A stretch of 60,482 bases of DNA, from positions 1 through 60,482 of the forward strand of contig CAYWDJ010000001.1 of the NCBI GenBank assembly GCA_964457005.1. The letters are read 5' to 3'. The notes under the pieces are model-generated. The model did not search any database. It was not told the origin of the DNA and saw nothing but the letters and a program-made list of their open reading frames with translations. Shown here piece by piece: positions 29,361 to 60,173 of the stretch; the stretch's first letter is position 1; every line of letters begins with the position of its first letter. The translations under genes were made by a program, and so were the position numbers. Origin of the DNA: an uncultured Planctomycetia bacterium. GTDB lineage: Bacteria; Omnitrophota; Gorgyraeia; Tantalellales; Tantalellaceae.

Positions 29361-29434
29361 AAAAAACAAAAAGCCCCAAGCCGTTATGCTTCAACGACTT
29401 GGAGCTTCTATTTTTAAATGGTGGAGGTGCCGGG
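29361..29434 (-). repeat. tRNA/tmRNA-3'-end-like core (16 nt) + rho-independent terminator, downstream of the PGK-fusion gene
   Basis: Minus strand, 30 nt after the stop: CCCGGCACCTCCACCA-TTTAAAAATAGA-AGCTCCAAG(17 nt)CTTGGGGCT-TTTTGTTTTTT. The stem has a G.U on the minus strand but a C.A mismatch on the plus strand. Confidence 0.7.
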
Positions 29435-29463
29435 TAAAAACCAAAGCCCTCAAAACAGAGCAA

Positions 29464-32400
29464 TTAGGCCGCCGTAAGCACCTTGAGAATATTATCAAGT
29501 CCTTGTATGTCCATCGGAACTATAGGCCTTAGAACGTGGCCGATAACATAGCTGAACCTTTCATTAACGGTTTTTCCAGAATCTACCAGATTTGCTATGT
29601 ACTCATCCACATCAGCGGATCCACTGAGATATTCTGAAAGGATAGCTTTCAATACGGTATAACCGGATCTATCCCGATATTCTTCGGAAGGAAGGGTCCT
29701 TGCCAACAATATAGTTTCTAAGACTCCTCTCACAAAAGAATCGTGTCTCTCTCCCCTGCCAGGGATACCCTGCATGCTGAAATTCATGGGCAATACATCC
29801 GCAAAAACCTGTGGATTGGCATCTACTATTTCCTTCAAAACAGAATAGGTCAAATCCGTTGTGAGCAAACCTATCTTCGCCCCTTTATATCTGGCTACAA
29901 TTTCATGTAACCTGCCTATATCAGTATACTGGTTATATTGAACAAATTCGATATTACCGGCAGAAACAGATCCTTTTCCAAAAACTTCATTAATGAATTT
30001 TCCGCATTCTTTCTTGCCAGCAAAACTCTGCGGCACAATAAAAACCATCTTGTTAGATTCCGCGTCAGCCGCGATCTCCATAGCGGCCTTGTCTATAATA
30101 ACATCCGAAACTGGAGCTTCACTCTCTTCAGATTCCTGTTCGCCAGGCGGCATATTAAACATGTTCCAAGCAAGCCCTTTTTCGGTGGCCTTTTTTAAAG
30201 ACTGAACCGCGGGGAGGGGCTTTTGACCCGCTAAATACTGCAATGTAGCTCCTCCGGCAAGCGTCTGATAACTGAATCTATCTCCAAAAATATCCAAGGC
30301 CTTATCCGTATCTCCTCCTCCTCCGAATGAGAACAGATCTCCTTCCTCAGACCTCTCGGAGATCCTTCCGAAAACAATTCTCGTCCCTTCCGCGTATGCA
30401 TCATCGATGTCAAACGCCCCTAAAGGGCCCTTAATATATATCGTCTTTGCGGTATCAACAGCCCCCAGATATCTTCCAACAGTTTCAGGGCCTATATCAT
30501 AGAGCACCAGGTCTGTCCCGGCTAATTCCTCGACCTTAACTACCTTAACACCGTCTGGCCCTTTTACCACAACGTCAACAGGAGCCATAAATTTCCCCTT
30601 ATATGTGCTATCCAACTCTTTTATCTTAGCCAGCGCAGCGTCCAGGTCCATCTTACTTCTTAAGAATGCCACGTTCGCTTCACCTATATCTATACCCCTT
30701 GCCATTAAAAGCACATTCGCCAAGCCACCACCGGTTATGATAGTGCTTACCCAGTTTTCGCTCAATGCCCTTTCCATAAGATCCAGATAATCGTCTATTT
30801 TTATTCCTCCGAGCGCCATAACATAAGGTTGTTCTATCTCCTCGGTAGCTTTACCTAACCCCGTAAGCTCCTTTTCCATAAGACGTCCTGCAACATTAGG
30901 CACTCCGGTAAACCCGACAACACTCGCCGCTGCCCTGTGAGCAACTGAAAAGCCGTCTATTACATGTATGTCGATCAACGGCTGCAAATTCTCGACAAGC
31001 TCACCAAGAGAATGATCAACACCTTTCGCCTGTTCTCCTTTCCAGGAACGAACATTTTTCAGTATCAATATCTGCCCGGGCTTAAGATTACGAATGGCAT
31101 CTTTAGCTGTATCCCCAAACAGGTCATCTATAACTATCACATCATATTTCCTTCCGCTTTCAGGATCTATCGCTTCCATTTCCTGTTTTAAAACCGCCGC
31201 ATGCTGTTCCATAGTTTCAAGATAATCCTTATCACCCGGTCTGCCCTGATGACCCATAACAACTGTTTTGGCTCCTCTATCAGACAGTTCTTTCAATGTT
31301 ACAGCCGCCGCCTTGATTCTATTATTAGTTGTGACCTTCCCGCCTCGCGTCAAAGTCGTATTAATATCGACTCTTACACTTACTGTCCTGTCCTCAACAT
31401 CCACTTCATCCAATGTAAAATATTCTCTCTTTGTCCTATACTTACCAACAGGCACTATGTGCCTGTTATTACGTATCCTGGCTTTCATTAACTCTTGAAA
31501 ACTTGCTGCCTGGTCAGAGTCTACCCCCTCATGGGAGATCCCGGTTCTTCCCAGCAGCCCCGTTCCTCCGGCTGAAGCAGGCGAACCTCTTAATGTCCGC
31601 GCTCCGAATTCCTCCATAAAATAGAACACCATCGTGTCACCCAAACCATAGAGCTCTTTATCCGCACCCCTATTCCAATTTGCTGCCTGGATCCAGTGAA
31701 TAGTATTGGTGTCATTGTCATCATCATATTTAATGACCGTTCCGATCTCTATCCTCTGTTCTCCACTTGCGTCTGTGGATATCAACACAAAACCTTCTTC
31801 TTCATCAGGATCAGAGTAGGCAAGCCCTCCAAACTGGAGTATCCCCGCCTTCTGAATAAGAGGCAGCATGTCAGGACTAAATTTTCTAATCTCAAAGGTC
31901 CGCTCTTTACGCATCTTTCTATTCTGTATCCCGGCCAATATTTCTCTCTCGTCAGCGGCACTCTGCTGAGCTGCATAATAATCAACTTTATCCGGGGTCT
32001 GCCACCTGGTCTCAAAAGACCTCTCGCCGGCAACAGCCAACAGTGCTTTATCCGCCGCGGTTAATACAAGATTTTCGGGATCACTCAGCCATTTAGAGAA
32101 TATTTTCTCCATTTCCCGGCATTGTTTATGTTCTAATCCGGCCTTGGCAAAAACCTCATGCACGATTGCGCTATGAACACTGCCTGCGAACCCTTCAGGA
32201 ATATATATACCTACTCCCCCGGCGTGGGGCTCAGAAAGACCCGGTATAGACATCAACTGGCCTGAAGCTACAAGATTCTTGAACTGTTTGGCTATCGCGG
32301 GATTTACCCATTCAATAAATTCATTGGCTGAACCAACACTACCTATATCCAGGGTCTCAGCCTTCCCGCTGGTTATGGCTTCATGAATGATCTTATCTGC

Positions 32401-32988
32401 CGTATTCTCATGCGCGGCATATGTCATTATCGCGGCGTCATTAGCAACCTCTCGTTTCAAGCGAGCCACAAATTCCATAGCATTCGCCACTGAAGAGGAA
32501 ATTTGAGGAGCGATAAAATTCTCATACTCTTCCGGCGTAAAGACTTTAAACACATAAGTTCCGGACATCTCTTCTTTTATTGCGCAGCATACATAACTAT
32601 TGTCGTTTATGGAACAAGGAATGACCAGAAGATCACCGTCACCGTACTCTTGCTTCTTCCTGATATTGAATATAATGCTATCCCCCGGCCTCTCTATTCC
32701 CTCCGTTCCCTTTTCTTTAAGGATCTCATCAACGATAATGTTACGTCTGATAGCGTTGATGTCTCTACCCTTTTCCGCATACTCATACATTATCGTAGCC
32801 GTTAGCTTCATTACATCCCTAAGCGCGGGGGTCTCAATTGGAGCCAACCGTGATTCCGCGGCAAGATCGTCCACTGAAAGAATGTCTGAAGATATTCTTC
32901 CCCCTGAAAAGGCATCTATCACCATGACATTATTCGCTAAAAACGCGATAGTTGTAATAATTACGAGAAATTGTTTCATAACTTTCAT
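29464..32988 (-). CDS. Multidomain protein: signal peptide/anchor + ~520-aa unknown region + archaeal-type phosphoglycerate kinase domain + ~235-aa unknown C-terminal region
   Basis: The PGK domain (about nt 30190-31430) is collinear with archaeal PGK: FTLDEVDVEDRTVSVRVDIN, LSDRGAKTVVMGHQGRPG, ILILKNVR, FSVAHR, GGIKIDD, ITGGGLAN, GPLGAFD, FGGGGDT. Start trimmed to ATG 32988 (MKVMKQFLVIITTIAFL, AAGGAGA SD); the track ORF extends to 33045. Confidence 0.8.
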   Translation of the reverse strand: MKVMKQFLVIITTIAFLANNVMVIDAFSGGRISSDILSVDDLAAESRLAPIETPALRDVMKLTATIMYEYAEKGRDINAIRRNIIVDEILKEKGTEGIERPGDSIIFNIRKKQEYGDGDLLVIPCSINDNSYVCCAIKEEMSGTYVFKVFTPEEYENFIAPQISSSVANAMEFVARLKREVANDAAIMTYAAHENTADKIIHEAITSGKAETLDIGSVGSANEFIEWVNPAIAKQFKNLVASGQLMSIPGLSEPHAGGVGIYIPEGFAGSVHSAIVHEVFAKAGLEHKQCREMEKIFSKWLSDPENLVLTAADKALLAVAGERSFETRWQTPDKVDYYAAQQSAADEREILAGIQNRKMRKERTFEIRKFSPDMLPLIQKAGILQFGGLAYSDPDEEEGFVLISTDASGEQRIEIGTVIKYDDDNDTNTIHWIQAANWNRGADKELYGLGDTMVFYFMEEFGARTLRGSPASAGGTGLLGRTGISHEGVDSDQAASFQELMKARIRNNRHIVPVGKYRTKREYFTLDEVDVEDRTVSVRVDINTTLTRGGKVTTNNRIKAAAVTLKELSDRGAKTVVMGHQGRPGDKDYLETMEQHAAVLKQEMEAIDPESGRKYDVIVIDDLFGDTAKDAIRNLKPGQILILKNVRSWKGEQAKGVDHSLGELVENLQPLIDIHVIDGFSVAHRAAASVVGFTGVPNVAGRLMEKELTGLGKATEEIEQPYVMALGGIKIDDYLDLMERALSENWVSTIITGGGLANVLLMARGIDIGEANVAFLRSKMDLDAALAKIKELDSTYKGKFMAPVDVVVKGPDGVKVVKVEELAGTDLVLYDIGPETVGRYLGAVDTAKTIYIKGPLGAFDIDDAYAEGTRIVFGRISERSEEGDLFSFGGGGDTDKALDIFGDRFSYQTLAGGATLQYLAGQKPLPAVQSLKKATEKGLAWNMFNMPPGEQESEESEAPVSDVIIDKAAMEIAADAESNKMVFIVPQSFAGKKECGKFINEVFGKGSVSAGNIEFVQYNQYTDIGRLHEIVARYKGAKIGLLTTDLTYSVLKEIVDANPQVFADVLPMNFSMQGIPGRGERHDSFVRGVLETILLARTLPSEEYRDRSGYTVLKAILSEYLSGSADVDEYIANLVDSGKTVNERFSYVIGHVLRPIVPMDIQGLDNILKVLTAA

Positions 32989-33180
32989 ATGTGAAGTCTC
33001 CTTAAATTGGCTAAGTGTACAAAAAATCAAATCGTAAAACTTCAATGCAGCACAATGTAAATGGGTATATTGCTGTCATTTCCGTTCCGACAATTTAAAA
33101 TCTTAACACCACTATCTTACCAGATGAATCTAGTTAGGGCAATAAAAATCTATGTTACTTTTTCATACCTAACATCCTAT

Positions 33181-33208
33181 ATAATAACAGATTAATTTTC
33201 CCTTGTAA
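33181..33208 (-). promoter_or_regulatory. Candidate promoter of the PGK-fusion gene
   Basis: Minus strand reads TTACAA - 16 nt - TATTAT, about 190 nt upstream of ATG 32988. Confidence 0.35.
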
Positions 33209-33394
33209 CACCTTACCATATAAGCATTTACAACTCACGCCGACAGAGGATACCGTAAGATACCCCTTGAAGCCCCTATGCAGGAAACCTTAGCGTGCTC
33301 CACCCTTCCCGCAGCCGAATACAGCGGAACTGAAAATCTGCTCAACCCGATGTGCGGTAGTGACACTATCACCATAGAAGCTGCGTTGATATCT

Positions 33395-33500
33395 TTGATC
33401 AAGGCTCCTTCTTTTAGCCCCACTAGCTCTCACGGTGTTGGCTTGTGGATACTTCTAAGCTCGCTAGTTAACGAGCACTGTTGGGGCCCCGGAAGAGTAC
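33395..33500 (-). repeat. Relic of the modular intergenic repeat (U2-type modules)
   Basis: Plus strand ccttcttttagccccactagctctcacggtgttggcttg matches 58605-58642 with 1 mismatch. The following ttctaagctcgctagttaacgagcactgttgggg parallels 60049-60085. Confidence 0.5.
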
Positions 33501-33574
33501 CATTGTTTTGCAAAGAGGCATAAAAAGAAGTATAATTACAGATAGGGTTTCAAATATATAACAAGGAGACAGAT

Positions 33575-34075
33575 ATGGGAAAAATGTTCGATGAAAAAGG
33601 TAAATTAAATATCCCCGTAGCGGGATCTATCAGCATACCAAAATCAAAGATACATAAAAAAGGCAATCAACTTATTATCAGCAAGGCATACTGCCCAAAA
33701 GGGCACAGCCTCATGAGCAACGTACAAGTTGATGGTGAACCGGGACTTCATTTTATTTATACGAATAAAGCAGACACGAAAGAAACAGATATCGTCATCT
33801 CTTCTGTCGTAAAAAAATGCAGAAAAAAGATTTTGAAAGGCGAAGCTTTTAAAAAGAATGAAATGGTTAAGATTCTCTGCCCCACATGCCGGACAGAACT
33901 TGATATACTGTTCGACTGCGAATGTGGTGCACCCATATATATATTTTATCTAGACAAAAAGCGAAATTACTATTATGGTCAGTCTTTCTGCTCCCGAATC
34001 GGGTGTGTAAAGGCAAGTCAACTTCGTTTCTCACAAGATACACTCCAAGAATTCATCACCAAACACACATTTTAG
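33575..34075 (+). CDS. Hypothetical Cys-rich (zinc-ribbon-like) protein, 166 aa
   Basis: AAGGAGA SD. CPKGH...CPTCRTELDILFDCECG...CSRIGC cysteine pairs. It is one of only three plus-strand genes and I recognise no family. Confidence 0.5.
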   Translation: MGKMFDEKGKLNIPVAGSISIPKSKIHKKGNQLIISKAYCPKGHSLMSNVQVDGEPGLHFIYTNKADTKETDIVISSVVKKCRKKILKGEAFKKNEMVKILCPTCRTELDILFDCECGAPIYIFYLDKKRNYYYGQSFCSRIGCVKASQLRFSQDTLQEFITKHTF

Positions 34076-34104
34076 AAACATATAAAAACACTGCCCACAT
34101 ACAC

Positions 34105-34310
34105 AAAAATCCCACCGCCTTGGATGGCAGTGGGATTTGATTTTTGGTGGAGGTGCCGGGATTCGATATGCGGTGGAGTTGTAACTTGTTCTACCCCATA
34201 CACTTATGACATAACTTGTTTATTTGTAAAAGATTTTGGATTCCACACAGCATACAACATCTTACAAGGTTTTCCCCTGGATTCACTTTGGATGGGCGCG
34301 TTTTGGGCAC
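34105..34310 (-). repeat. Long copy A of the repeat: ~165-nt body + 22-nt tRNA-like 3' end + terminator (possible structured RNA or att-like site)
   Basis: The minus strand starts at the HK stop and runs ...GCGCCCATCCAAAGTGAATCCAGGGGAAAACCTTG...ATCGAATCCCGGCACCTCCACCA (core 34166-34145). It continues AAAATCAA-ATCCCACTGCC(6)GGCGGTGGGAT-TTTTGTG. The hairpin (34109-34136) has a G.U on the minus strand and a C.A on the plus strand. The plus-strand T-run also lets it terminate the convergent 33575..34075 gene. Confidence 0.75.
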
Positions 34311-35317
34311 TAAACTGGTAAGATAAAATAGAACGTAGAGCCTTCATTTATTGTGCTTTTAACCCCTATTTTCCCGCCGTGAGCTTTTACTATTTTCTTA
34401 GTAATTGCAAGCCCCAGACCTATTTGTGTATCGCTCCCCTTGGGCTTTATAGTGGAAACATAAAACTCTTTAAATATTTTGTTTAGGTCTTCATCTGGGA
34501 TACCTACACCATGATCTATAACTTTTGTGGTGACATTCTTTGCATCACTGGATATCTCGACTTCTATAGCAGAATTATCACGCGAGTATTTAATAGCATT
34601 GCTCAAAAGGTTATCTAATCCCTGTCTCATCCTTCGGGGATCAAAACATATTGATGGAATATCCCCCAAAACCTTTAACTCCACATTAATCCCACGTTTC
34701 TGTGCGACAAACCTGTTAAGTTCAATATTGTCATCAACAAAAGCTACATAATCAGATCTCACCTTATTCAGATCTAATTTTCCGGCCTCTACCTTGGAAA
34801 CATCTAGAAAATTATCGATAAGATCCTTCATCATGACAGATTGAGCTTCAACGACTCCGACATATTTCATGGCTTTTTCGTCTTCCTGAACACTTTTACT
34901 GGACGATATGACCTTTGATGCCATATTCATTACCGAGATAGGATTCCTGAGATCGTGTGCGGCCATACCCAAAAACTTATTCTTCAGATCGTTTATACGT
35001 TCAAGTTGTTTGTTCTTCTCGTACAGTTCTCTCTGCAGTTTAATGGTTTTATTTTCGATCCTGTTCTTAGTAGCTATAATTTCAAGAACAACAAACAAAA
35101 CAAGCGCACAGACGATCACTGTGATCAGGTTCTCAAAAGTGGCTTCACGCCAGTTGACCCGACTCGGCGGCGCACCGAACAAAATATGTGAAAGGTCAAA
35201 TATCTCCTCCACCCAGGAAACTACACACAAGGCAAGAAAGCCCGCGATAACGGTAGCTACGATCCTCCCGGTAAAAATTTTGGCCCCTATCCCTTTTTCT
35301 TTTTTTCCAGCTTCCAT
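34310..35317 (-). CDS. Orphan membrane sensor histidine kinase (HisKA + HATPase_c)
   Basis: Two N-terminal TM helices, H-box FLGMAAHDLRNPISV, N box LLSNAIKYS, G boxes DHGVGIP and GLGLAITKKIV. No adjacent response regulator. Confidence 0.85.
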   Translation of the reverse strand: MEAGKKEKGIGAKIFTGRIVATVIAGFLALCVVSWVEEIFDLSHILFGAPPSRVNWREATFENLITVIVCALVLFVVLEIIATKNRIENKTIKLQRELYEKNKQLERINDLKNKFLGMAAHDLRNPISVMNMASKVISSSKSVQEDEKAMKYVGVVEAQSVMMKDLIDNFLDVSKVEAGKLDLNKVRSDYVAFVDDNIELNRFVAQKRGINVELKVLGDIPSICFDPRRMRQGLDNLLSNAIKYSRDNSAIEVEISSDAKNVTTKVIDHGVGIPDEDLNKIFKEFYVSTIKPKGSDTQIGLGLAITKKIVKAHGGKIGVKSTINEGSTFYFILPV

Positions 35318-35332
35318 ATATGAGTACTTGCC

Positions 35333-37435
35333 CTATTTTAAAGATACGCCTGAAGATCTAAAGTGAATATCTCTCTGCGGAAATGCTATTGTTATCCCTT
35401 TTTCCTTAAAAATTCTGTTTATACTAAAATGTAATTCGCTTTTTATCGTAAACCTGTTGTTAGGCTCATTGGTCCAGAAATACAATTTGAAATTCAGAGA
35501 GCTGTCACCGAACTCCTCGAACCATACATAGGATTCTGGTCTTCTCAATACTTTTAGATGTTTATCGGCAACCTCAAGCAAACACGCTTTTACCAGTTCA
35601 ACATCAGATCCATATGCAACTCCGACCTTGACGTGGACACGGGTTATTTTGTCGCTATAGCTCCAGTTGACGACACGCTGTGTCATAAACTCTGAGTTAG
35701 GTACGATAACGGAAATATTGTCAAAGGTGTCGACAATAGTACTGCGAGCCTTTATGGCTTTTACCCTGCCCGGCAGCTCTCCCACTTCAACATAATCTCC
35801 GATCTTTACCGGGCGCTCTATAAGCATTACTATTCCGCTTATAAAGTTTTTTGCTATATCTTGAAGTCCTAACCCTATGGCTATACCCAGAGTTCCGGCA
35901 AAGACAGTAAGCGCCGCCAGGTCAACTCCCAGAACGGATAAGACTATAAAAATCCCCACTATTACCATTGAATATTTTATTGATACTGAAAAAGTATACT
36001 GAACATCCTCGTCAATATGTAATTTAGGGTAAACATTCTTTTTCAAAACCACATCAAGCAGACGAGCCCCGACAATGGCTACCCATAGTATAACTACAAC
36101 TTTGAATATAACAGCTATGGAGACACTTACTTTCCCCAGAGTAAAGAATGGTTTTTGTACGGCCTCAAGAATAAAGCTAATGGTCTCCTGTTTCACTCCC
36201 GAAATCTCGGCCACAATAAAGATCCCAAGCAGGAAAAGCGCCCAACCGAAAAAAGTGGCAAATACTCCGATAAAAGGATGTGATGATGGTTGTTCCGGGG
36301 ATGCGGCTTTCATTGCAGCAAATACCTTCCGTACTCCCAGCATAACGATACGATAAGCAACAAATAAAGCCAATATGGTCACAACTACTACAAACACCCT
36401 CAACCCGAGATAGACACTAAGCTGGTGATATCCCAAAAAAGCGGTGCAAAAATAGGCCAACAAGAACAGCCCGCCGCCTATGAGCCCCATCCGCATGCTC
36501 TTAAGCAACATTCGACGGGCACCAGAGATGTCACCTTTCCCGCAAGATCTCGTCATTCTCTTCAAGACAATAAACAGCGAAAGGAGAGACAATAACAGTA
36601 ACAACATAAACATGCCGTCTCCCAGACCCAAGGTATACGGTTTAGCCGGAGCAAAAAGCCTGCGTTGGAGTACATCCAGACGCTTGGTGCTTAACAGTGA
36701 AAGATAATCCCTTACCAGCTCTATCTGAACATCCAAAAAATTTATTCTCTCCTTCACTGAAAAAAGTTCAGAGTTGATAAACACCAGTTCATCCTCATTG
36801 ATCTTAATAGTCTCCAGAATCTCACCATTAGTCCCTTCTTTGAGAGAAGCCAGGCTCTTCTGAGCAGCGATCTCAGCCTGGGTGGCTTTTAATTCAAGGT
36901 TTATCACGGGTATTTTCTTTTGCAGGAAGATCTTTTTCTTCTCCAACTTAAGGAGAGAACTCTGCACCGCCTTTTCCTCATTCCTCAACTCTATTAAAGA
37001 AATATCTTTGTTGCCAAGCATCTGAACTTTCCGTTCGATTAGAGCTACAGTCTGTTCATATGTCTGTATTTTCTGTTTTATTGCCAGCTCTTTAGCAGTA
37101 AGAGTAGCTTCCTTCTGCCCCAGAGCATGGATCTTTTCCTGAGTGACCACATCTCCGGCAATAACGACTTCTTTACCTGTCCCGCTTTTAGCCCCTATCT
37201 CGACTTTTTCCTTTTCTACAGCTTCCTTTTCCTTATCCAGGTTTTGGACTTCCCGGGTGAGCTGTTCTTTCCCATCTTTTGCCGTCTTGATATTTGAGAG
37301 CACCTTTTCTTCCGGGTTTATCTCCGCGCTTTCCACGGTGGCGTGTTCAGACTGCGCCTTGGGCTCTTCCGCCCCGACAATTGTAAAGCTGGAACAGATA
37401 AATATAACGCTTAGCAGCATAATAGTTTTTTTCAT
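35333..37435 (-). CDS. MscS/MscK-family mechanosensitive channel with a long N-terminal coiled-coil periplasmic domain
   Basis: Signal peptide, ~270-aa Glu/Lys/Gln-rich coiled coil and multiple TM segments. MscS core: GLQDIAKNFISGIVMLIERPVKIGDYVEVGELPGRVKAIKARSTIV. Confidence 0.9.
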   Translation of the reverse strand: MKKTIMLLSVIFICSSFTIVGAEEPKAQSEHATVESAEINPEEKVLSNIKTAKDGKEQLTREVQNLDKEKEAVEKEKVEIGAKSGTGKEVVIAGDVVTQEKIHALGQKEATLTAKELAIKQKIQTYEQTVALIERKVQMLGNKDISLIELRNEEKAVQSSLLKLEKKKIFLQKKIPVINLELKATQAEIAAQKSLASLKEGTNGEILETIKINEDELVFINSELFSVKERINFLDVQIELVRDYLSLLSTKRLDVLQRRLFAPAKPYTLGLGDGMFMLLLLLSLLSLFIVLKRMTRSCGKGDISGARRMLLKSMRMGLIGGGLFLLAYFCTAFLGYHQLSVYLGLRVFVVVVTILALFVAYRIVMLGVRKVFAAMKAASPEQPSSHPFIGVFATFFGWALFLLGIFIVAEISGVKQETISFILEAVQKPFFTLGKVSVSIAVIFKVVVILWVAIVGARLLDVVLKKNVYPKLHIDEDVQYTFSVSIKYSMVIVGIFIVLSVLGVDLAALTVFAGTLGIAIGLGLQDIAKNFISGIVMLIERPVKIGDYVEVGELPGRVKAIKARSTIVDTFDNISVIVPNSEFMTQRVVNWSYSDKITRVHVKVGVAYGSDVELVKACLLEVADKHLKVLRRPESYVWFEEFGDSSLNFKLYFWTNEPNNRFTIKSELHFSINRIFKEKGITIAFPQRDIHFRSSGVSLK

Positions 37436-37453
37436 AACATTCCCTTTATTCGT

Positions 37454-38518
37454 TTAGAACCATTTTTTCTTCTTAAAGAAAATTATCAGGACCCCCGCAA
37501 CAACGGCCATAAAGCCCAAGACCGAAAAGTATCCCCAGTGCCACTCAAGTTCGGGCATATACTTAAAGTTCATGCCATATATCCCAGCGATAAAAGTAAG
37601 CGGGATAAAAATGGCAGCAAATATCGTCAGGACCTTCATTACTTCGTTCATCCTGTTACTTAAGCTGGAAAGATACATATCCAGCATCCCGGATATCATA
37701 TCCCTGGATGTCTCAATAGTATCTATAACCTGTATAGTGTGTTCATACACATCCCTCAAATATATGACCGTGGTCTGATCTACAAGAGCCGCATCCCCTC
37801 TTGCAAGCGCGTTAATGGCCTCTCTCAAGGGCCAGACGAACTTACGAAAAAATATAATATCCCTTTTTACGCCGTATATGTTCTGTAATATTTTTGGATC
37901 AGCCTTCTTTACCAGTTTTTTCTCCATATCCTCTATTTTTTCGCCAATGGACTCCAATATTACAAAATAGTTATCGACCACGGCATCAATAAGGGAATAT
38001 GCCAGATAATCGGACCTCATTTTTCTTATACGGCCTTTAGCCTTCCGTATACGTTCCCTCACATTTTCAAAGACATCTCCCTCCTGTTCCTGAAATGAGA
38101 TGACAAAATTCTTCCCTACGATCAAACTTACCTGCTCTGCGGTAATATCATGAGACTTATGTTCTTTGTAGAGCATCTTCAAAACAACGAAAATATAATC
38201 CTCGAAATCATCAAATTTGGGTCGCTGACCCGTGTTAACGATATCTTCAAGCACCAGAGGATGTATGTTAAATGCTTTTCCCAGATCGGAGACAAGATCA
38301 ACATCATGCACCCCGTCTATGTTTATCCATGTCACGCCTTTTTCATTTACCGAGTCTATACACTCTTGTGCGCTCCGGGCGATTTTCTCCCTAAAATCCG
38401 ATTCATCATAATTGATTATAGTTATCTTTACTTTCTCTGTCTTACTCTCACCTATGTGCACAAGAGTACCCGGAACAGTTCCGGCTTTCTTGGATATCTC
38501 CTTGATCAGCCTCGACAT
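37454..38518 (-). CDS. corA: Magnesium/cobalt transporter CorA
   Basis: 354 aa with two C-terminal TM helices and the signature GIYGMNFKYMPEL. Confidence 0.9.
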   Translation of the reverse strand: MSRLIKEISKKAGTVPGTLVHIGESKTEKVKITIINYDESDFREKIARSAQECIDSVNEKGVTWINIDGVHDVDLVSDLGKAFNIHPLVLEDIVNTGQRPKFDDFEDYIFVVLKMLYKEHKSHDITAEQVSLIVGKNFVISFQEQEGDVFENVRERIRKAKGRIRKMRSDYLAYSLIDAVVDNYFVILESIGEKIEDMEKKLVKKADPKILQNIYGVKRDIIFFRKFVWPLREAINALARGDAALVDQTTVIYLRDVYEHTIQVIDTIETSRDMISGMLDMYLSSLSNRMNEVMKVLTIFAAIFIPLTFIAGIYGMNFKYMPELEWHWGYFSVLGFMAVVAGVLIIFFKKKKWF

Positions 38519-38595
38519 ACCGCCTCCCTTTGAATCATAAAAACAATATCATTTAGTTCCGCAAGTTTCCTTCACCCATATTTTAGCATACCTGA

Positions 38596-38632
38596 AAACG
38601 GTATAGGAAGAATTTATCATTTTCCTTATACC
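38596..38632 (-). terminator. Probable terminator after the lipase-like gene
   Basis: Minus-strand hairpin GGTATA(A)GGAA...TTCCTATACC followed by GTTTTC (a short U-run), 16 nt after the stop at 38648. Confidence 0.45.
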
Positions 38633-38647
38633 GGCCCCATTTGTAGC

Positions 38648-40093
38648 TCATCTTGGATGTTCCAGCAAATAATAAAGGATATTATCCGAAAAATGCGGGT
38701 CTTCCGTTATCCCTACATGATCACTGAAAATAAACATCACCTGTGACCACTTTATCGGCGAAACAAGCCTGGGAGACCATTTTCCGCCTATCCTTTCATC
38801 CATTAAAGCACTTGACCTTAAAACCGTCCCGTCACCAGGAGCCTTCCGGATCACTTCGACAGATCCATCTTTCCTGTTTACCCCAACTACGGCGTCTGTC
38901 TGAATGGCATCCCCGGTAAAAAGGGCGAAAGAAACACTACTAGGAGGATCAGCGGGAACATCAAGCGCTTCCCAGAACCGTTTTGCCCTATTAAGGCATT
39001 TTCTCTGATGGTCAAGAGCTATCCTGCGTCTCTCTTCAGCACTGTCGACCTCAGGCAATAAAGTTTTCAACACCTTTTCTTGTCCCGGAGAAGCTAACCC
39101 CCATTTCATATCTTCCCACAGATCCGGATCATAAATATCAAGAGGCTCCCCGTTAGGAGTATCCTTATCCATCAGCGCTCTGTGCTTTGGATGAGGCATC
39201 AGTTCATACATTGACGGCATAGTGCCCAGAATAGCCGGTGGATATTTTGGCATTAACGGACTATTCAACCCTTCTAAAAGGCTTTTAAACGCTGATATGG
39301 ATCCCGCGTTCGGGGTGCTTACCATAATAAGTTTGTCAATATGCTTTGCCCCTGCCCAGTTTGTTTTTGGCAGAGTACCGTCTTTCGGCAGGTCTTGTGT
39401 GCCATATCTAAAGTAATACCTGCTTATCAGCCCGCCCATAGAATGGGCGACGATATCAAATTTCACATTATAATCTTTTATCCCGAACCTTTTTTCTATC
39501 TCCTTCTGGACATATATTCTGTGTTCTTCAATGAAATCCTCCAGCAATTTAGCGTTTTCCACTATATCTCTCCGCCAATCATAATCGAACTGAAAGGAGG
39601 TAAAATGTCCTTCCGGATATTGAACCGTTCCTGACTTTCCCAGATCTTCGTCCCGGTACCCCCCCACTCCAAGGATCTTAAGAATATTAAGATAAGCGTT
39701 AAGACGTATCGGTATAAGTAAAAAATTCAGGTCCAACCGGGCCAGGGCTCCGCTGGGAACAACGGTGTCTTTCAAGTCCTTCAGGGGGACGCCCTCCTGC
39801 ATCGGGAGAGCAGCGAGACGGGCGCCTTTCTTTGTGCCCGGATCCGCATATTTCCCGGAGAATGCACCCCATACGAGAGTGCCCGTTTCTGAATCCTTTA
39901 ATCTTGACCCCAAAAGTCCCGGGATAACGATAACCGGATTCCTCTGAGGCTTATCATATCCATTCTTTATCTCATATGTCCCTACACTCCTTGTGTACAA
40001 TACATCCAGGTCCGCTGACTTAGGCGCGGCCGTGCACTCCGTGGAAACGATCAAAAATATAGACATCACGGCTATATTAATTATTCTGCGCAT
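38648..40093 (-). CDS. Exported alpha/beta-hydrolase, lipase/LCAT-like
   Basis: Signal peptide. Nucleophile elbow DIVAHSMGGLISRYYF (GxSxG), a late GDGTV motif (Asp of the triad region), 481 aa. Confidence 0.6.
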   Translation of the reverse strand: MRRIINIAVMSIFLIVSTECTAAPKSADLDVLYTRSVGTYEIKNGYDKPQRNPVIVIPGLLGSRLKDSETGTLVWGAFSGKYADPGTKKGARLAALPMQEGVPLKDLKDTVVPSGALARLDLNFLLIPIRLNAYLNILKILGVGGYRDEDLGKSGTVQYPEGHFTSFQFDYDWRRDIVENAKLLEDFIEEHRIYVQKEIEKRFGIKDYNVKFDIVAHSMGGLISRYYFRYGTQDLPKDGTLPKTNWAGAKHIDKLIMVSTPNAGSISAFKSLLEGLNSPLMPKYPPAILGTMPSMYELMPHPKHRALMDKDTPNGEPLDIYDPDLWEDMKWGLASPGQEKVLKTLLPEVDSAEERRRIALDHQRKCLNRAKRFWEALDVPADPPSSVSFALFTGDAIQTDAVVGVNRKDGSVEVIRKAPGDGTVLRSSALMDERIGGKWSPRLVSPIKWSQVMFIFSDHVGITEDPHFSDNILYYLLEHPR

Positions 40094-40114
40094 TACTTCA
40101 TACTCCTTTGCTCT

Positions 40115-42591: not shown

Positions 42592-42713
42592 CTATTCCTC
42601 CATTATCCACATTCCCCACGAAGCATCACAGGCAGTATTATACCCCATACTCATGTGAAAGTATATGAGAACTAAAATTTCGTATATTCTTTTAATAATT
42701 GGACTTGGGGTTT

Positions 42714-42914
42714 TTACCGGGACTCATCCCTTGGGATCTTACCGACCACAAATCCCACTATGAGCCCGATAAGCATTATTAACGGCAATAATACGATCTG
42801 TGACATACTTATATGCCAAAACAAAAAGCGCAAAGATACTACCTGCGTGTTTTGGAGGATAATTATTAAGAATAGCGTTATTAAGCTAACAACAATGCCT
42901 ATCTTAAGGTTCAT
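42714..42914 (-). CDS. LapA/DUF1049-like small membrane protein
   Basis: 66 aa with two TM helices and the QNTQVVSLRFLFW motif typical of the LapA domain. Confidence 0.55.
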   Translation of the reverse strand: MNLKIGIVVSLITLFLIIILQNTQVVSLRFLFWHISMSQIVLLPLIMLIGLIVGFVVGKIPRDESR

Positions 42915-43393
42915 AAGTCCTCCTCTTCTCCTTTACCATGCCCACTCTTTTTGTGTTTATAAATACCTTTCTGCAACAGCTTGCTTATCTTCTCCAACCA
43001 TTGCACCCAAGTAAGTATAAGTAATGTTATAAAACACATCACCAGGGCCATTCCGTAGTGATCCAGTCCTATCGAGGCTCCCATGCTGGCAAGCAGCCAT
43101 ACAACCGAGGCTGATGTAACACCCGTGACAAGATCGTTACGGTTCATTATCACGCCCGCCCCTAGAAAACCAACACCGGTAACTATCTGTCCCAGCACTC
43201 TGGAAGCACTATTCCCCGGATCAAGGCTGCGTGCAAGTGTCATAAAATACATCGTAGACAAACATATCAATATGCTCGTCCTGATACCGACGGGTTTTCC
43301 TTTTATCTGTCTTTCGAGGCCTATTACTGAACCGCAGATGACTGACACAAGTATTCTAATATAAAAAGAACCATCCATTACTTCACCAAACAT
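42911..43393 (-). CDS. mgtC: MgtC/SapB family membrane protein
   Basis: GSVIGLERQIKGKPVGIRTSILICL and GQIVTGVGFLGAGVIM signatures. ATGA overlap with the next gene. Confidence 0.8.
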   Translation of the reverse strand: MFGEVMDGSFYIRILVSVICGSVIGLERQIKGKPVGIRTSILICLSTMYFMTLARSLDPGNSASRVLGQIVTGVGFLGAGVIMNRNDLVTGVTSASVVWLLASMGASIGLDHYGMALVMCFITLLILTWVQWLEKISKLLQKGIYKHKKSGHGKGEEEDL

Positions 43394-43437
43394 ATATCAC
43401 TTCCTTCCTTGTTTAACTTACTACTTAAATATCGATC

Positions 43438-44460: not shown

Positions 44461-44461
44461 G

Positions 44462-52540: not shown

Positions 52541-52715
52541 AAATAAAAACCCCAAGTCATTATTAAATAACAACTTAGGGTTTCTATTTTTATTTGGTGG
52601 AGGTGTACGGGATACAAAAACCGAACCATGTGAGGTTTTTGAACCCCGGAATCTACACAAGCTATGAGCGAAGCGAATAGCAAAGAATTAGACGAAGTCT
52701 GATTCTTACATTTAA
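52541..52715 (-). repeat. Copy C of the repeat (short body + diverged core + terminator), second unit of a tandem array
   Basis: Minus strand AGACTTCGTCTAATTC...CCGGGGTTCAAAAACCTC...TATCCCGTACACCTCCACCA (core 52611-52595), then AATAAAAATAGAA-ACCCTAAGT(15)ACTTGGGGT-TTTTATTTTT. The hairpin has a G.U on the minus strand only. Confidence 0.6.
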
Positions 52716-53020
52716 AACAAAAAACCCGGAAGAGGATTTATTCTCTTCCGGGTTTAGTTTTAAATGGTGGAGGTGCCGGGATTCGATATGCGATGGAGTT
52801 GTAACTTGTTCTCCTCCATACACTTATGGTGATAACTCCTTTATTTAGAAAAGTTTAGGTTCTTACAACATCTTACAAGGTTTTCCCCTAGATTCACTTT
52901 GGATGGGCGCGTTTTCGCTGCGCCTTCTCTCGCTTTGCTCGAGGATCCTTCTGGACCCGCCTTGACAACTAGAACGGTGTCGAGCACACAATAGTGGCGG
53001 AGAAACTACACAAACAACTC
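52716..53020 (-). repeat. Long copy B of the repeat: U2-type module + ~165-nt body + 22-nt tRNA-like 3' end + terminator
   Basis: Begins 5 nt after the stop at 53025. Shares with copy A a 48-nt block (1 mismatch) and a 47-nt block (1 mismatch) flanking a diverged middle. Core 52786-52765; perfect hairpin CCCGGAAGAG/CTCTTCCGGG (52725-52753) plus a T-run. Confidence 0.75.
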
Positions 53021-53024
53021 GCTG

Positions 53025-53810: not shown

Positions 53811-53872
53811 AAAAACCCTATGCAACTATTTTAGTTGCATAGGGTTTAGTTTTGAATGGTGGAGGTTTCAGG
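53811..53872 (-). repeat. Minimal copy of the repeat (10-nt core ACCTCCACCA + terminator) immediately after the TolC-like gene
   Basis: Minus strand, 6 nt after the stop: CCTGAAACCTCCACCA-TTCAAAACTAAA-CCCTATGCAAC(7)GTTGCATAGGG-TTTTT. The stem is a perfect 11 bp. Confidence 0.65.
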
Positions 53873-58574: not shown

Positions 58575-58930
58575 CATTATCTCTTCGCTTCGCTCGAGGA
58601 TCCTTCTTTTAGCCCCACTAGCTCTCACGGTGTCGGCTTGCGGAACCTTCCATATCGCCTCTTAAACTCGCACGGTTTGGACACACTTGAAGCCTCCCAA
58701 AAAAACAAAAAACCCCAAGTCATTATTTTACAACAACTTAGGGCCTATATTTTTAAATGGTGGAGGTGCCGGGGTTAGATTAAGGGTGTTTTTGCAAACC
58801 CTCTATTTACGGTGCTTTCGCACTTATCTCGTGTATTTATAAGAAATTACAGAGTGCGGTTGTTTACATTTAGCTACATATGATTACAGATGTTTTGATG
58901 TGAAATGGGCACTGTTTGGGCTCTAACATA
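58575..58930 (-). repeat. Composite copy F: diverged ~165-nt body + 17-nt core + terminator + s1/U1/U2 modules
   Basis: The minus strand starts 2 nt after the HEPN stop: GCCCAAACAGTGCCCATTTC..., GTGC-GAAA-GCAC, AGGGT(10)ACCCT, ...CCCCGGCACCTCCACCA (core 58774-58758). The hairpin at 58712-58744 has a G.U on the minus strand only, then a T-run. Modules follow, including the 45-nt U1 (58634-58678). Confidence 0.65.
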
Positions 58931-58931: not shown

Positions 58932-59348
58932 TTACTGTTTAGTATCTTCTTCCACTAAACGTTTTGCCTTATCTAAAGTCGATTCAACAAAGCTTATATA
59001 CTCTACACATTCCTTGGTTGTTACCTCTATACCTCCATCATACAAATCTGTATTTCTTTTAGATCTCATCAAGTTTCCTAGCGCACTAACTCCATCATCA
59101 GCAAGAATATCCGCAAGTTTTTCTATGATCTTAATATGATGTCCTCGTACACTTTTCACTTTTCTCCCATAAAAACTAATAAGGGCTATGCCTGTCTTCA
59201 AAAGCGCGGTATATGAATAATTAAACTTCACATCTAAAAATTTATCTTTTTTTGCAATATCCAAATCACGCAAAGCATTCTTAATGTTATTGTGAACCTG
59301 TTCTTGTGTAAATTTGAACTTTGCAAAACATTTATCATCAAATTTCAT
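58932..59348 (-). CDS. HEPN-domain protein (putative toxin of a HEPN/MNT pair)
   Basis: 138 aa, all-helical. The region LMRSKRNTDLYDG resembles the HEPN R-x-x-x-x-(H/Y) region. The start overlaps the MNT stop by 1 nt (TAATG). Confidence 0.6.
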   Translation of the reverse strand: MKFDDKCFAKFKFTQEQVHNNIKNALRDLDIAKKDKFLDVKFNYSYTALLKTGIALISFYGRKVKSVRGHHIKIIEKLADILADDGVSALGNLMRSKRNTDLYDGGIEVTTKECVEYISFVESTLDKAKRLVEEDTKQ

Positions 59349-59893
59349 TAAATAACCTCAATGTATTTTTCTTTAAAAACAGTCTCAATAAAAGGATCTT
59401 TTCCCTTTTGTCTTTTTTCAAAATCTATTTTGTCCATATTCACAACATTGATTTCTCTGCCGATTTCTTTTTGAATTTTACTGATCTCTTTTTGCAGATC
59501 CATTACACTATGCTCACCTACTACTAAAAGATCTATGTCGCTATGTGCCTCCATTGAATCTTTGGCATACGAACCAAAAAGATAAACTTTTTCGATGCCC
59601 TTTATTTTAGTGAGCATATTTTTTAACTTACTTTCGACACCTATTGTTTTAAAAACTATTTTCTTATATTCTTCATACAGTGGATATAACTTATTGATCG
59701 AATATATTTTTTGATTTCCCCTTGTCTCGCTTGACAATAGTCCATCATTTTCAAGTTCTTTGAGTTTTTTAAGAAGATTCCTTTTATCCAAATTCAGTTT
59801 CCTCTCCATCTCATTCACGAAAAGACTATCTTCAGGATTGAGGAAAAAATAATTCAAAAGTACTTTTGTTATCTTTGATCTCATTGATATCAT
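59348..59893 (-). CDS. Winged-helix + minimal nucleotidyltransferase (MNT) protein (putative antitoxin)
   Basis: N-terminal wHTH-like region. The nucleotidyltransferase motif VYLFGSYAKDSMEAHSDIDLLVV is GS...DxD. AAGGAG SD. Confidence 0.75.
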   Translation of the reverse strand: MISMRSKITKVLLNYFFLNPEDSLFVNEMERKLNLDKRNLLKKLKELENDGLLSSETRGNQKIYSINKLYPLYEEYKKIVFKTIGVESKLKNMLTKIKGIEKVYLFGSYAKDSMEAHSDIDLLVVGEHSVMDLQKEISKIQKEIGREINVVNMDKIDFEKRQKGKDPFIETVFKEKYIEVI

Positions 59894-59954: not shown

Positions 59955-60173
59955 CATTAAGGCATGCTTTCGCTGCGCCTTCGGCTTGCGGAACCTTCCA
60001 TATCGCCTCTAAAACTCGCACGGTTTCTCTCGCTTTGCTCGAGGATCCTTCTAAGCTCGCCTAGGAAGCTCGCACGGTGTGGGCACACATAAAGTCTTCA
60101 TACAAACAAAAAGCCCCAAACCGTTATGTTTCAACAACTTGGAGCTTCTGTTTTTAACTGGTGGAGGTGCCGG
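59955..60173 (-). repeat. Composite copy H: 15-nt core + terminator + s1/U2/U1 modules, upstream of the TA pair
   Basis: Minus strand ...CTCCGGCACCTCCACCA (core 60173-60159), then GTTAAAAACAGA-AGCTCCAA(19)TTGGGGCT-TTTTGTTTG, then AGACTTTATGTGTGCCCACACCGTGCGAG. U2 and the 45-nt U1 (59982-60026) follow. The hairpin has a G.U on the minus strand only. Confidence 0.65.

Follow-up and report, generated by a model that had tools for sequence, protein, structure and literature searches.

Repeated non-coding bodies in an Omnitrophota contig as probable recombination-site arms of elements integrated serially at the 3′ end of ssrA

The window considered here, a 60,482-nt stretch of DNA from an uncultured member of the Omnitrophota, contains two near-identical non-coding bodies of about 165 nt (A and B) and a diverged third one (F), each of which runs into a short tRNA-like core. 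The question raised by this locus is whether such bodies act as RNA or as DNA. A sequence-only reading had left both answers standing, as conserved ends around a variable center fit either the arms of a recombination site (attP-like) or a structured 3′-UTR or small RNA. The first answer is now well supported by a core that matches the end of the tmRNA gene (ssrA), by arrays of such cores at ssrA in other genomes, by integrases, and by phased arm repeats. The bodies are very probably recombination-site arms that were left by serial integration into the 3′ end of ssrA, and not RNA genes.

The near-identical pair and its diverged relative are real, lie at the positions first reported, and are read as the reverse complement (Table 1). 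A and B share 85% identity over 161 nt (blastn, E = 1e-46), and their two common blocks of 48 and 47 nt were found as described, with one mismatch each (repeat families D6 and D7). The middle region between the blocks is less scrambled than had been stated: in the alignment, B lacks 10 nt in a single deletion, one further indel affects 1 nt, and roughly twelve positions are substituted. What body F has in common with A and B is limited to the motifs GAGCCCAAACAGTGCCCAT (5′) and CCCGGCACCTCCACCA (3′), and its interior is unrelated to theirs. The two hairpins ascribed to F (GTGC-GAAA-GCAC and AGGGT/ACCCT) are present, and its nearest relative is found in another MAG (L052, 4724-4892). The genes preceding A and B are indeed unrelated, as one encodes a HisKA/HATPase kinase and the other a 242-aa protein without a Pfam match, and no conserved ORF exists in the bodies. 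The span originally delimited for A (34105-34310) also takes in a terminator (34105-34138).

By sequence comparison, the core shared by these bodies is identical to the 3′ terminus of ssrA in MAGs of Omnitrophota and their relatives. Dozens of genome matches read ...GGACCCGGGTTCGAATCCCGGCACCTCCACCA, and tmRNA genes ending at the core sequence are called by ARAGORN in L078, L020, L052, L022, and L048. Measured against Omnitrophota tmRNA genes confirmed by ARAGORN, the blocks of identity between core and ssrA vary in length from 10 to 22 nt, a spread that points to decay or to integrases of several specificities. The region 29.4-60.2 kb contains seven copies of the core sequence ACCTCCACCA, which all lie on the minus strand, directly upstream of an intrinsic-terminator hairpin whose sequence differs between the copies; for CCGGCACCTCCACCA, five exact occurrences compare with 0.06 expected. 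A search for the core sequence yielded no copy in positions 1-29418. The description of the core as tRNA-like holds for its origin as a tmRNA gene fragment but not for its structure, as a 5′ acceptor strand and a T-stem are missing.

Several cores deserve individual mention. The most distal one (29419) is located 30 nt past the stop codon of a gene for a 1193-aa PGK-domain protein and is followed by a AGCTCCAAG...CTTGGGGC terminator of the type that L078 has behind its genuine ssrA; this core is probably the distal limit of the array. The 1193-aa protein has a weak 29% N-terminal match near ssrA in L049, which is uninformative for the synteny of the distal flank. Core 53857 starts 12 nt past the stop codon of an outer-membrane efflux gene. 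Intact ssrA is absent from the window and from the 343 nt beyond it, where ARAGORN finds neither a tRNA nor a tmRNA gene (L001 and L002 included), and core 60159 comes after an ORF instead of a tmRNA body; a two-piece tmRNA was rejected on these grounds. If the array belongs to ssrA, the gene of this organism would be expected to end in ...GGTTCGAATCCCGGCACCTCCACCA.

Table 1. Coordinates of the bodies, cores, arm motifs, and associated features in the window; assignments to P arm, P′ arm, and element are interpretations
Feature	Position	Strand	Description
Body + core A	34145-34310	minus	
Body + core B	52765-52916	minus	
Body + core F	58758-58923	minus	Diverged relative of A/B
Body A	34167..34310	minus	Putative P arm of element ending in histidine kinase gene
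Body A motif GTGCCCA	34304-34310	minus	Overlaps kinase stop codon
Body A motif GCGCCCA	34293-34299	minus	
Body A TTGTR repeats	34263-34267 and 34253-34257	minus	
Body B	52787..52916	minus	Putative P arm, 85% identical to A
Body B motif GCGCCCA	52904-52910	minus	
Body F	58774..58923	minus	Putative type-2 P arm of MNT-HEPN cassette
Body F arm pair	GAGCCCA 58917-58923, GTGCCCA 58906-58912	minus	166/155 nt from CCA end
Core A	34145..34166	minus	TCGAATCCCGGCACCTCCACCA, 22 nt of ssrA 3′ end, T-loop to CCA
Core B	52765..52786	minus	Same 22-nt ssrA 3′ fragment as core A
Core F	58758..58773	minus	CCCGGCACCTCCACCA, 16 nt of ssrA 3′ end
Core copy 60159	60159..60173	minus	CCGGCACCTCCACCA, preceded by putative type-3 P arm
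Degenerate core 52595	52595..52605	minus	CACCTCCACCA + terminator
Degenerate core 53857	53857..53866	minus	ACCTCCACCA; own terminator follows
Most distal core 29419	29419..29434	minus	CCCGGCACCTCCACCA
Terminator A	34105..34138	minus	Hairpin + T-run after core A, read from sequence
P′-type repeat module	52917..53024	minus	GTGTGCTCGACACCG...GGATCCTCGAGCAAAGCGAGAGAA...GGCGCAGCGAAA; repeat families D8, D10
MNT-HEPN pair	58932..59893	minus	Cargo of unit ending in body F
TGGTGCAAATCGTGGTGGAG repeat in putative type-3 P arm	~60215-60236	minus	Before core 60159
Putative P′ arm pair	60069..60086	minus	GTGCCCACACCGTGCGAG, ~79 nt downstream of core 60159, past terminator
Putative P′ arm near core 52595	52505-52523	minus	GTGCTCACACCGTGCCCAT

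Short repeats are arranged around the cores as in an att junction, where site-like motifs recur with constant spacing to either side. In eight of nine bodies, the body side has a pair of GYGCCCA motifs whose starts are 166-167 and 155-156 nt away from the CCA end; the pair in body B is displaced by exactly 10 nt. TTGTR repeats follow with a 10-nt period at 124, 114, and 104 nt from the CCA end. Body A matches the geometry seen in other MAGs (arm pair at 166/155 nt, TTGTR at 123/113 nt), while body B is 10 nt shorter than A and has lost the distal GTGCCCA and one TTGTR unit. On the other side, a second GTGCCCA pair is found 79-89 nt downstream of cores, past the terminator; L048, L065, and L052 have an equivalent pair at 80-82 nt past their cores. 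All seven minus-strand GYGCCCA sites of the 60 kb fall within 160 nt of a core. Given that GTGCC is the complement of GGCAC within the core, recognition of “arm” and “core” may not necessarily be separate. From their layout, the repeats would be bound by the integrase, Xis, or a host factor. The putative type-3 arm that precedes core 60159 is of a different kind, with two copies of GTGGTGAAA, and recurs in L078_5496, L022_7551, L057, L031, and L049_3597.

Arrays of same-orientation cores start at a real ssrA in related MAGs, namely in L078 (four copies), L022 (five copies), L052, L020, L049, and L102. The intact target gene heads the homologous arrays of L078, L020, L052, and L022 in the same orientation as the cores, and ssrA is preceded by smpB in L020, L048, and L052. 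A direct link to the window is provided by the unit that ends in body F. This unit, whose cargo is an MNT (nucleotidyltransferase) and HEPN-like toxin–antitoxin pair (Pfam NTP_transf_2/Polbeta match), corresponds to L078 645-1905 with 78.6% identity over 1273 nt, where it stands directly after the real tmRNA gene, and it was also found in L083. Just downstream of ssrA, L048 and L065 encode tyrosine integrases of 342 aa (PF00589) that are 67% identical to each other, of which that of L065 shows a weak Arm-DNA-bind_4 match; integrase fragments are present in L049 and L083. An attP of the same layout adjoins a tyrosine integrase in the viral contig L131, whose enzyme is only 26% identical to the Omnitrophota integrases.

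The proposed mechanism starts with a circular element whose attP, composed of P arm, core, and P′ arm, would be recombined with the ssrA 3′ end by a tyrosine integrase. The P′ side of the element would supply a replacement 3′ end and terminator to ssrA, and the original 3′ fragment would be displaced to the far end of the element with the P arm before it. Each later integration would push the older units further downstream, which is why every internal junction should have the same order: cargo gene, P arm of about 165 bp (the body), ssrA fragment of 10-22 nt (the core), and terminator plus P′ arm of the older unit. The junctions would thus be of the attR type. The region from 29.4 to 60.2 kb would represent seven or more integrative units in tandem, which were inserted successively into the ssrA 3′ end. 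A and B would be the P arms of two closely related elements, and F that of a more distant relative with the same arm motif. The conserved body ends are the phased GTGCCCA pair, the TTGTR triplet, and the core-proximal block, and the constant body length would mirror the protein–DNA architecture of the recombination complex. Core A is accordingly interpreted as a displaced target fragment (att core), and terminator A as belonging to the P′ side of the older neighboring element, a hairpin that may once have terminated ssrA.

Traces of rearrangement are also present. The P′-type module at 52917..53024 recurs after core 60159 and directly abuts body B at its truncated 5′ end, a join that looks like a deletion scar linking a P′ region to a P arm. 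Cores 52595 and B delimit an “empty” unit of 160 bp. Several observations stand against integration, among them the absence of intact ssrA and the low identity of the L131 integrase noted above. No recognizable P arm precedes the cores 29419, 52595, and 53857. A Pfam search that included PF00589 identified no integrase, excisionase, or other recombinase among 20 ORFs of the 31-kb array (29-60 kb). Much of the cargo resembles ordinary chromosomal genes (PGK-domain protein, CorA, MscS, MFS, RND pump). Entry of the units by integration is deduced from their sequence, and the units would be either integrase-less remnants or elements that, because they lack an integrase, are at best cis-mobilizable.

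The alternative that the bodies and cores form a structured 3′-UTR element or a small RNA, in which processing of the tRNA/tmRNA-like acceptor end leaves the CCA free, possibly for aminoacylation, is very unlikely. The elements are located on the sense strand between stop codon and terminator and are therefore transcribed, and the 3′ strand of the core (CACCUCC-A-CCA) could form a G3:U70 Ala-type acceptor. However, the 5′ half of the T-stem and the 5′ acceptor strand are absent, ARAGORN detects no tRNA or tmRNA gene in the window, and the Rfam scan that had been suggested returned no match at the gathering threshold for the whole window and only chance-level matches around A at E ≤ 10. The RNA folds of A (z = +0.81) and B (z = +0.61) are worse than those of shuffled sequences, whereas the local hairpins of F are better than shuffled (z = -2.25). 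Covariation was not seen among nine homologs, a sample of limited power; the RNAalifold consensus amounts to -3.2 kcal/mol with an unfavorable covariation term of +0.7. The change from UGGGGU in A to UGGAGG in B retains the pairing with CCUCCA in the core, as had been pointed out in favor of an acceptor minihelix, but across the nine homologs the helix is paired in just 50% of cells and is absent in four. What is conserved instead are direct repeats with a period of 10-11 nt that recur past the terminator, outside of the transcript. The minihelix and the structured RNA are thus unsupported. The bodies are necessarily co-transcribed with the upstream genes, and a secondary RNA role is possible, as F has stable hairpins.

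Two further alternatives operate at the DNA level. The bodies could be part of an integron-like platform in which small cassettes that lack an integrase are captured at ssrA. Each cassette would combine one or two genes with a promoter, a P arm, and a terminator-bearing P′ arm, and a resident, ssrA-specific tyrosine integrase would shuffle the cassettes in trans, so that the array would be an active reservoir and not a graveyard of islands in decay. At 0.16-5 kb, the units are small and frequently contain just one toxin–antitoxin pair or a Fic gene, the cargo stop codon abuts the P arm, the same MNT-HEPN cassette appears in three contexts (window, L078, L083), both arms are well kept despite the lack of integrases, and integrases of a matching type adjoin ssrA in some MAGs. 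Yet one unit comprises 18 kb of ordinary-looking genes, several cores are without arms, and simple decay fits the fragmented integrases of L049 and L083. There was no sign of excision products, of empty sites, or of polymorphism in position, with L001 and L002 showing the same context, and integrase-less units in tandem ssrA arrays have already been described as cis-mobilizable elements (PMC3146451). The platform is rated as improbable for this array. There is an outside chance for the broader idea that the tmRNA gene of Omnitrophota and relatives is home to an integron-like cassette system with a trans-acting, ssrA-specific tyrosine integrase. In such a system, the resident integrase may capture, stack, and possibly reshuffle small integrase-less cassettes that have a P arm of about 165 bp and a terminator-bearing P′ arm, and whose cargo may range from toxin–antitoxin pairs and Fic proteins to transporters and the like. 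It is hardly conceivable that the copies stem from a terminator-associated repeat (REP/MITE-like) that resembles the ssrA end and was copied locally, by duplication or gene conversion, with no site-specific integration involved. The AGCTCCAAG...CTTGGGGC terminator hairpins do also occur without a core at 13341 and 24818, and further intergenic repeat modules are present, but the cores match ssrA over up to 22 nt and arrays start at ssrA in several MAGs. The copies share one orientation, are confined to the array, lack terminal inverted repeats, and combine differing hairpins with fixed-distance arm pairs on both sides.

Other candidates were discarded. A plus-strand small ORF from the reverse complement of the core (MVEVPG...) differs in length and sequence between copies; ORFs of this type show up as artefacts in L022. 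A role of the CACCUCC heptamer as an anti-Shine–Dalgarno mimic at ribosome-binding sites was dropped, as the heptamer belongs to the end of the tmRNA gene, where it is the 3′ strand of the acceptor. Variable and template repeats of a DGR do not apply to bodies that are non-coding and whose A/B differences are not adenine-specific. A decayed tmRNA 3′ half was dismissed as the source of the bodies, which have no convincing likeness to Omnitrophota tmRNA upstream of the T-loop.

Recombination-site arms as the preferred explanation remove the tempting lead of a tRNA-like 3′-UTR RNA family and replace it with an explanation at the DNA level. About 31 kb, including ordinary-looking transport and signaling genes, probably arrived by serial integration at ssrA. 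This is relevant to annotation, to the inference of horizontal transfer in Omnitrophota, and to binning, because short-read assemblies break at these repeats: exact-protein look-ups, where the protein was on record, hit only contigs below 2 kb that end at the repeats, and a metagenome DNA scan retrieved the same 1.58-kb contig. The arm geometry can serve directly as a pattern for finding elements that target ssrA in uncultured genomes of Omnitrophota and the PVC group; for type-1 and type-2 bodies, it reads GTGCCCAAANNGYGCCCAT, about 150 nt, and then CCGGCACCTCCACCA. The integrase/att pairs of the L048/L065 type with GTGCCCA arms are candidates for site-specific integration tools. If the integron-like idea were true, the region downstream of ssrA would be the main accessory-gene reservoir of these small genomes. 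Biologically, integration at ssrA is already known, so that its occurrence in the little-studied Omnitrophota extends a known phenomenon and does not open a new one.

In λ-type attP sites, arm-type integrase sites as well as Xis and IHF sites flank the core. The bodies resemble this layout in their direct repeats in helical phase, which flank a short core at constant distances on either side with variable sequence in between, but their motifs are unrelated to those of λ, and binding to the candidate sites is predicted from sequence. Sublocation classes for integration into tRNA and tmRNA genes were reportedly defined by Williams in 2002, and we take the 22-nt identity block of A and B, which starts in the T-loop, to be the classic T-loop sublocation. 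Integron cassette arrays likewise consist of small, same-orientation cassettes that often carry toxin–antitoxin genes and end in a recombination site. An integron attC was nevertheless rejected, as IntI and the imperfect palindrome are both missing, and the single DNA strand of A folds worse than its shuffles (-9.4 kcal/mol, z = +1.71). Moreover, the site duplicates the end of a tmRNA gene, and the cassettes have their own terminators and apparently their own promoters.

In Islander/TIGER islands, a tyrosine integrase splits a target gene that is restored by the island, and the 3′ fragment is left at the far end (PMC4383910). The displaced ssrA 3′ fragment would mark the far end here as well. 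The window units differ from the catalogued islands by their lack of an integrase, by identity blocks that vary between 10 and 22 nt, and by an intact target gene copy that would be located outside the window. The tycheposon arrays of Prochlorococcus form islands that adjoin tRNA and tmRNA genes, in which successive integrations push older elements further in and leave remnants made up of incomplete tRNAs and integrase fragments (Hackl et al., bioRxiv 10.1101/2020.12.28.424599). They belong to another phylum and integrase lineage, and replication or packaging genes were not seen in the window. Close parallels also exist with the ssrA-GIs of Dehalococcoides (McMurdie et al. 2011), tandem islands downstream of a single-copy tmRNA gene that are each bounded by a direct repeat of about 20 bp of the ssrA 3′ end, with extra conservation around the repeats and insertion in the T-loop region; some units without an integration module are viewed as accreted cis-mobilizable elements (PMC3146451). 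The Dehalococcoides islands rely on a serine recombinase (DsiB) (PMC3146451), while the enzymes associated with the arrays described here are tyrosine integrases. The units here are also often much smaller (0.16-5 kb, single toxin–antitoxin cassettes) and carry a P arm of about 165 bp with phased GTGCCCA and TTGTR repeats. The tandem arrangement, the ssrA-end repeats, the flanking conservation, the T-loop insertion, and the integrase-less units are common to both.

Three sites in the window carry the non-coding bodies A, B and F described in the sequence-only reading, when they are read as the reverse complement. A and B share 85% identity over 161 nt (blastn E = 1e-46), with common stretches of 64 nt at 95% and 52 nt at 98% identity (repeat families D6 and D7). 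Their middle had been called diverged and indel-rich; it can nevertheless be aligned: B carries a single 10-nt deletion, and beyond that there are a 1-nt indel and roughly a dozen substitutions. The likeness of F to A and B is confined to its two ends, as had been noted, and both small hairpins named for it are present. The type-1 bodies (A, B and those of L078, L083 and L020; L-numbers are MAG, viral or metagenome contigs used for comparison) additionally harbor a second, imperfect target-end copy ACTCCACC ~27 nt upstream of the true core CCTCCACC; this copy may be what remains of an older crossover site, or it may offer a further binding site of the core type.

By sequence identity, the “tRNA-like core” is a 10–22-nt copy of the 3′ end of ssrA, the tmRNA gene, because complete tmRNA genes found by ARAGORN in relatives (L078, L020, L052, L022, and L048) end exactly at the GGACCCGGGTTCGAATCCCGGCACCTCCACCA end. 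The 15-mer CCGGCACCTCCACCA has five minus-strand copies in the window against 0.06 expected, and the 10-mer ACCTCCACCA has seven, none in the first 29 kb. Each of the seven is on the minus strand and downstream of an ORF of that strand; behind it come an A/T spacer, a G+C-rich hairpin whose sequence varies from copy to copy, and a T-run. A scan of representative genomes with ATCCCGGCACCTCCACCA returned, besides chance coding-region matches, dozens of loci reading ...GGACCCGGGTTCGAATCCCGGCACCTCCACCA in MAGs labelled Omnitrophota, Opitutaceae/Verrucomicrobia, Elusimicrobia, and “Planctomycetia.” Identity to ssrA in A and B begins in the T-loop (TCGAATCC...); neither the 5′ acceptor strand nor the T-stem’s 5′ half is present in the cores. 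That CACCUCC looks like the anti-Shine-Dalgarno sequence follows from the ssrA 3′-end identity and requires no separate explanation.

Nine bodies were aligned (A, B, F, two from L078, and one each from L083, L020, L115, and L052). Each opens with the direct repeat GTGCCCAAAnnG(T/C)GCCCAT, and in eight of the nine this distal arm pair starts 166–167 and 155–156 nt from the CCA end. In B the first copy is missing and the position is shifted by exactly 10 nt. TTGTR repeats lie 124, 114, and 104 nt from the end in type-1 bodies (10-nt period); B has lost one unit of them, which explains its 10-nt deletion. Past the terminator, 79–89 nt downstream of the cores, comes a second GTGCCCA pair: it is found in L048 and L065, at two places in L052, and behind cores 60159 and 52595 of the window. 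The minus strand of the window has seven GYGCCCA sites, and every one falls within 160 nt of a core, a clustering that should be far from chance, since only ~4% of the window is that near one. The other arm type is a tandem (C)GTGGTGAAA pair ~55–75 nt from the core (window copy 60159, L078_5496, L022_7551, L057, L031, and L049_3597). Its co-occurrence with the L049/L083-type integrase suggests at least two integrase specificities for one target, ssrA.

In relatives, arrays of this kind start at ssrA. L078 carries a real tmRNA gene at 87–504, a terminator, and an MNT-HEPN pair with 78.6% identity over 1273 nt to window positions 59949–58688. After these come an A/B-like body with core (1827), another body very close to A/B with core (2943), and a third unit whose terminal body is of another type (5496). 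Arrays starting at ssrA in a single orientation also occur in L022 (five cores), L052, L020, L049, and L102. Further on, L052 has toxin–antitoxin cassettes with a body after each, once followed by a one-mismatch core. The cargo of these units includes Fic, nitroreductase, Schlafen/AlbA_2, a PBP-type transpeptidase domain, RluA, an Na/Ca exchanger, and MscS. L048 and L065 encode a 342-aa tyrosine integrase (PF00589 and SAM-like N domain; 67% identical to each other) ~1 kb downstream of ssrA. In L049 a C-terminal integrase fragment directly follows ssrA, and L083 has a split copy of this type downstream of MNT-HEPN and an A/B-like junction. The viral contig L131 (IMG/VR) has the same arm layout: a GGTGCCCA pair is separated by ~150 nt from a tRNA 3′ fragment, after which a terminator, another GGTGCCCA pair, and a 387-aa tyrosine integrase follow in turn. 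As it contains no complete tRNA, its site is a phage attP; with only 26% identity between its integrase and that of L048, it serves as an analogy of architecture and not as proof of one family.

The attP-like interpretation is thus supported by the ssrA identity, the array context in relatives and the arm geometry, and the bodies are best explained as P arms of attP-derived junctions. A circular element (P arm, core, P′ arm) would integrate into the 3′ end of ssrA and regenerate the gene from its P′ side, which must consequently carry a terminator. The P arm would come to lie just before the displaced ssrA fragment, at the element’s far end. With each further integration the units would stack, giving internal junctions in the order newer unit’s P arm, core, older unit’s P′ arm and terminator. 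The model would account for the ssrA identity, the single orientation, the restriction to a single region that ends at 29419, a terminator that differs from core to core, bodies adjoining unrelated cargo genes, and conserved ends at fixed spacing around a tolerant interior. The kinase stop codon overlaps the first GTGCCCA of its body. The sequence relationships and the geometry are observed; the repeats would be bound by integrase or accessory proteins, and these particular units presumably entered by integration.

Bodies, cores, core-to-core units and associated repeats (window positions unless a contig is named).
Feature	Position	Size	Content
Body A	34145-34310		
Body B	52765-52916		
Body F	58758-58923		
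ACCTCCACCA cores	29419, 34145, 52595, 52765, 53857, 58758, 60159	10 nt	
Unit	29435-34144	~4.7 kb	PGK-domain protein
Unit	34167-52594	~18 kb	kinase, MscS, CorA, MFS, MgtC, GSH-synthetase-like cluster
Unit	52606-52764	160 bp	empty
Unit	52787-53856	~1.1 kb	242-aa protein
Unit	53867-58757	~4.9 kb	RND pump, outer-membrane factor
Unit	58774-60158	~1.4 kb	MNT-HEPN
At least one more unit	beyond 60174		QueD-like ORF, seen in L001
ACTCCACC copies	34170-34180, 52790-52800; L078 ~2915-2925; L083		
GTGTGCCCACACCGTGCGAGC...ACCGTGCGAGTTTTAGAGGCGATATGGAAGGTTCCGCAAGCCGAAGGCGCAGCGAAAGC module	59961-60086, 58588-58680, 52917-53024, 33393-33485		
AGCTCCAAG-loop-CTTGGGGCTTTTTG hairpins	13341-13410, 24818-24887, 29364-29418, 52540-52594, 58703-58757, 60104-60158		

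A structured RNA or acceptor-like minihelix, also proposed from the sequence, found no support. Neither a tRNA or tmRNA nor any other known RNA was detected in the window by ARAGORN and Rfam. Compared with dinucleotide shuffles, neither A (z = +0.81) nor B (z = +0.61) gains fold stability; the z = −2.25 of F stems from its pair of local hairpins. For the nine bodies together, RNAalifold gives a consensus of −3.2 kcal/mol and an unfavorable covariation term, and the sole long-range helix of this consensus joins the arm’s invariant GTGCC to the core’s GGCAC. In the acceptor-like helix, UGGGGU or UGGAGG against CCUCCA, only 50% of the cells pair. L020, L115, F, and L052 do not have this helix, and its invariant 3′ strand does not allow it to covary. 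Nothing points to a structured RNA, at the limited power of nine sequences. Folded as single-stranded DNA, A does worse than shuffles (z = +1.71), which also speaks against an attC-like site. Weaknesses of the integration reading are that the 31-kb array contains no integrase and the window no ssrA (ARAGORN), that three cores in the window lack a P arm, and that much of the cargo resembles ordinary chromosomal genes. An integron-like cassette platform at ssrA, mobilized in trans, is an improbable reading of the array.

Other repeats accompany the junctions. Cores 60159 and 58758 have on their P′ side an intergenic module of ~100–170 nt (GTGTGCCCACACCGTGCGAGC...GAAGGATCCTCGAGCAAAGCGAGAGAA...ACCGTGCGAGTTTTAGAGGCGATATGGAAGGTTCCGCAAGCCGAAGGCGCAGCGAAAGC) with internal ACCGTGCGAG repeats. 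Another copy is joined to the upstream end of body B, and one more is found 700 nt below core A; the module may extend the P′ arm or be a small repeat element in its own right. Related terminator hairpins (AGCTCCAAG-loop-CTTGGGGCTTTTTG) occur with and without an ssrA core and after the real tmRNA gene in L078. Wide reuse of one terminator type by the lineage would explain this, as would decay of older junctions at the two core-less copies. The empty unit is flanked by two cores, each with its own terminator; similar core-to-core units of 160–370 bp in L022, L062, and L102 may likewise be deletion remnants of whole elements. In Opitutaceae and Verrucomicrobia MAGs, the same ssrA 3′ fragment is preceded by conserved bodies peculiar to them (e.g., CCTGCCGTCTCAATAAGAGCCCTCGGCCACCGGGCTAATCTCAGCCGATAGCGGATTCAAATCCCGG...; L025/L042/L097, one Verrucomicrobiae contig, L006, L033, L072, and L106), several including a full T-arm. 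As multiple copies lie ~1 kb apart near ssrA, they probably form a parallel array system with a different integrase.

The cargo includes a 1193-aa ORF (29464–33045, minus strand) with an architecture unusual for phosphoglycerate kinase (PGK): the complete PGK domain occupies only residues 545–941. The ~540 residues before it open with a signal-peptide-like hydrophobic stretch, and the ~250 after it have no Pfam match. Its N-terminal part shows 29% likeness to a large protein near ssrA in L049. The minus-strand cluster at 47320–52324 encodes N-formylglutamate amidohydrolase-like and MATCAP-family (tyrosine carboxypeptidase-like) proteins, a glutathione-synthetase/RimK-type ATP-grasp enzyme, and a Mur-ligase-like protein, which suggests a peptide ligation and trimming system. 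The source of the window is probably an Omnitrophota genome, since MNT-HEPN homologues in Omnitrophota MAGs are 77–80% identical and its terminator type also follows ssrA in L078. L001, L002, and L120–L123 are short-read metagenome contigs of the same organism. Public contigs with exact copies of this region’s proteins are all <2 kb and end at or near cores or bodies, so these repeats break short-read assemblies.

The value of the result lies in annotation and in the search for mobile elements in Omnitrophota; it will not surprise a genomic-island specialist. Dehalococcoides carries multiple ssrA-specific islands in tandem downstream of ssrA. A 20-bp direct repeat of ssrA delimits each one, extra conservation is seen next to these repeats, and some units without an integration module are read as cis-mobilizable elements gathered by accretion (PMC3146451). 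The window array matches this arrangement, with the difference that a tyrosine recombinase class, seen in relatives, takes the place of the serine recombinase. It also fits the general Islander model of tDNA-targeting islands (PMC4383910) and matches tycheposon arrays, in which elements already present are driven inward by later integrations, with partial tRNAs and broken integrases as the remnants. Many very small units, a sharply phased P arm, and a different phylum set it apart from these known systems.
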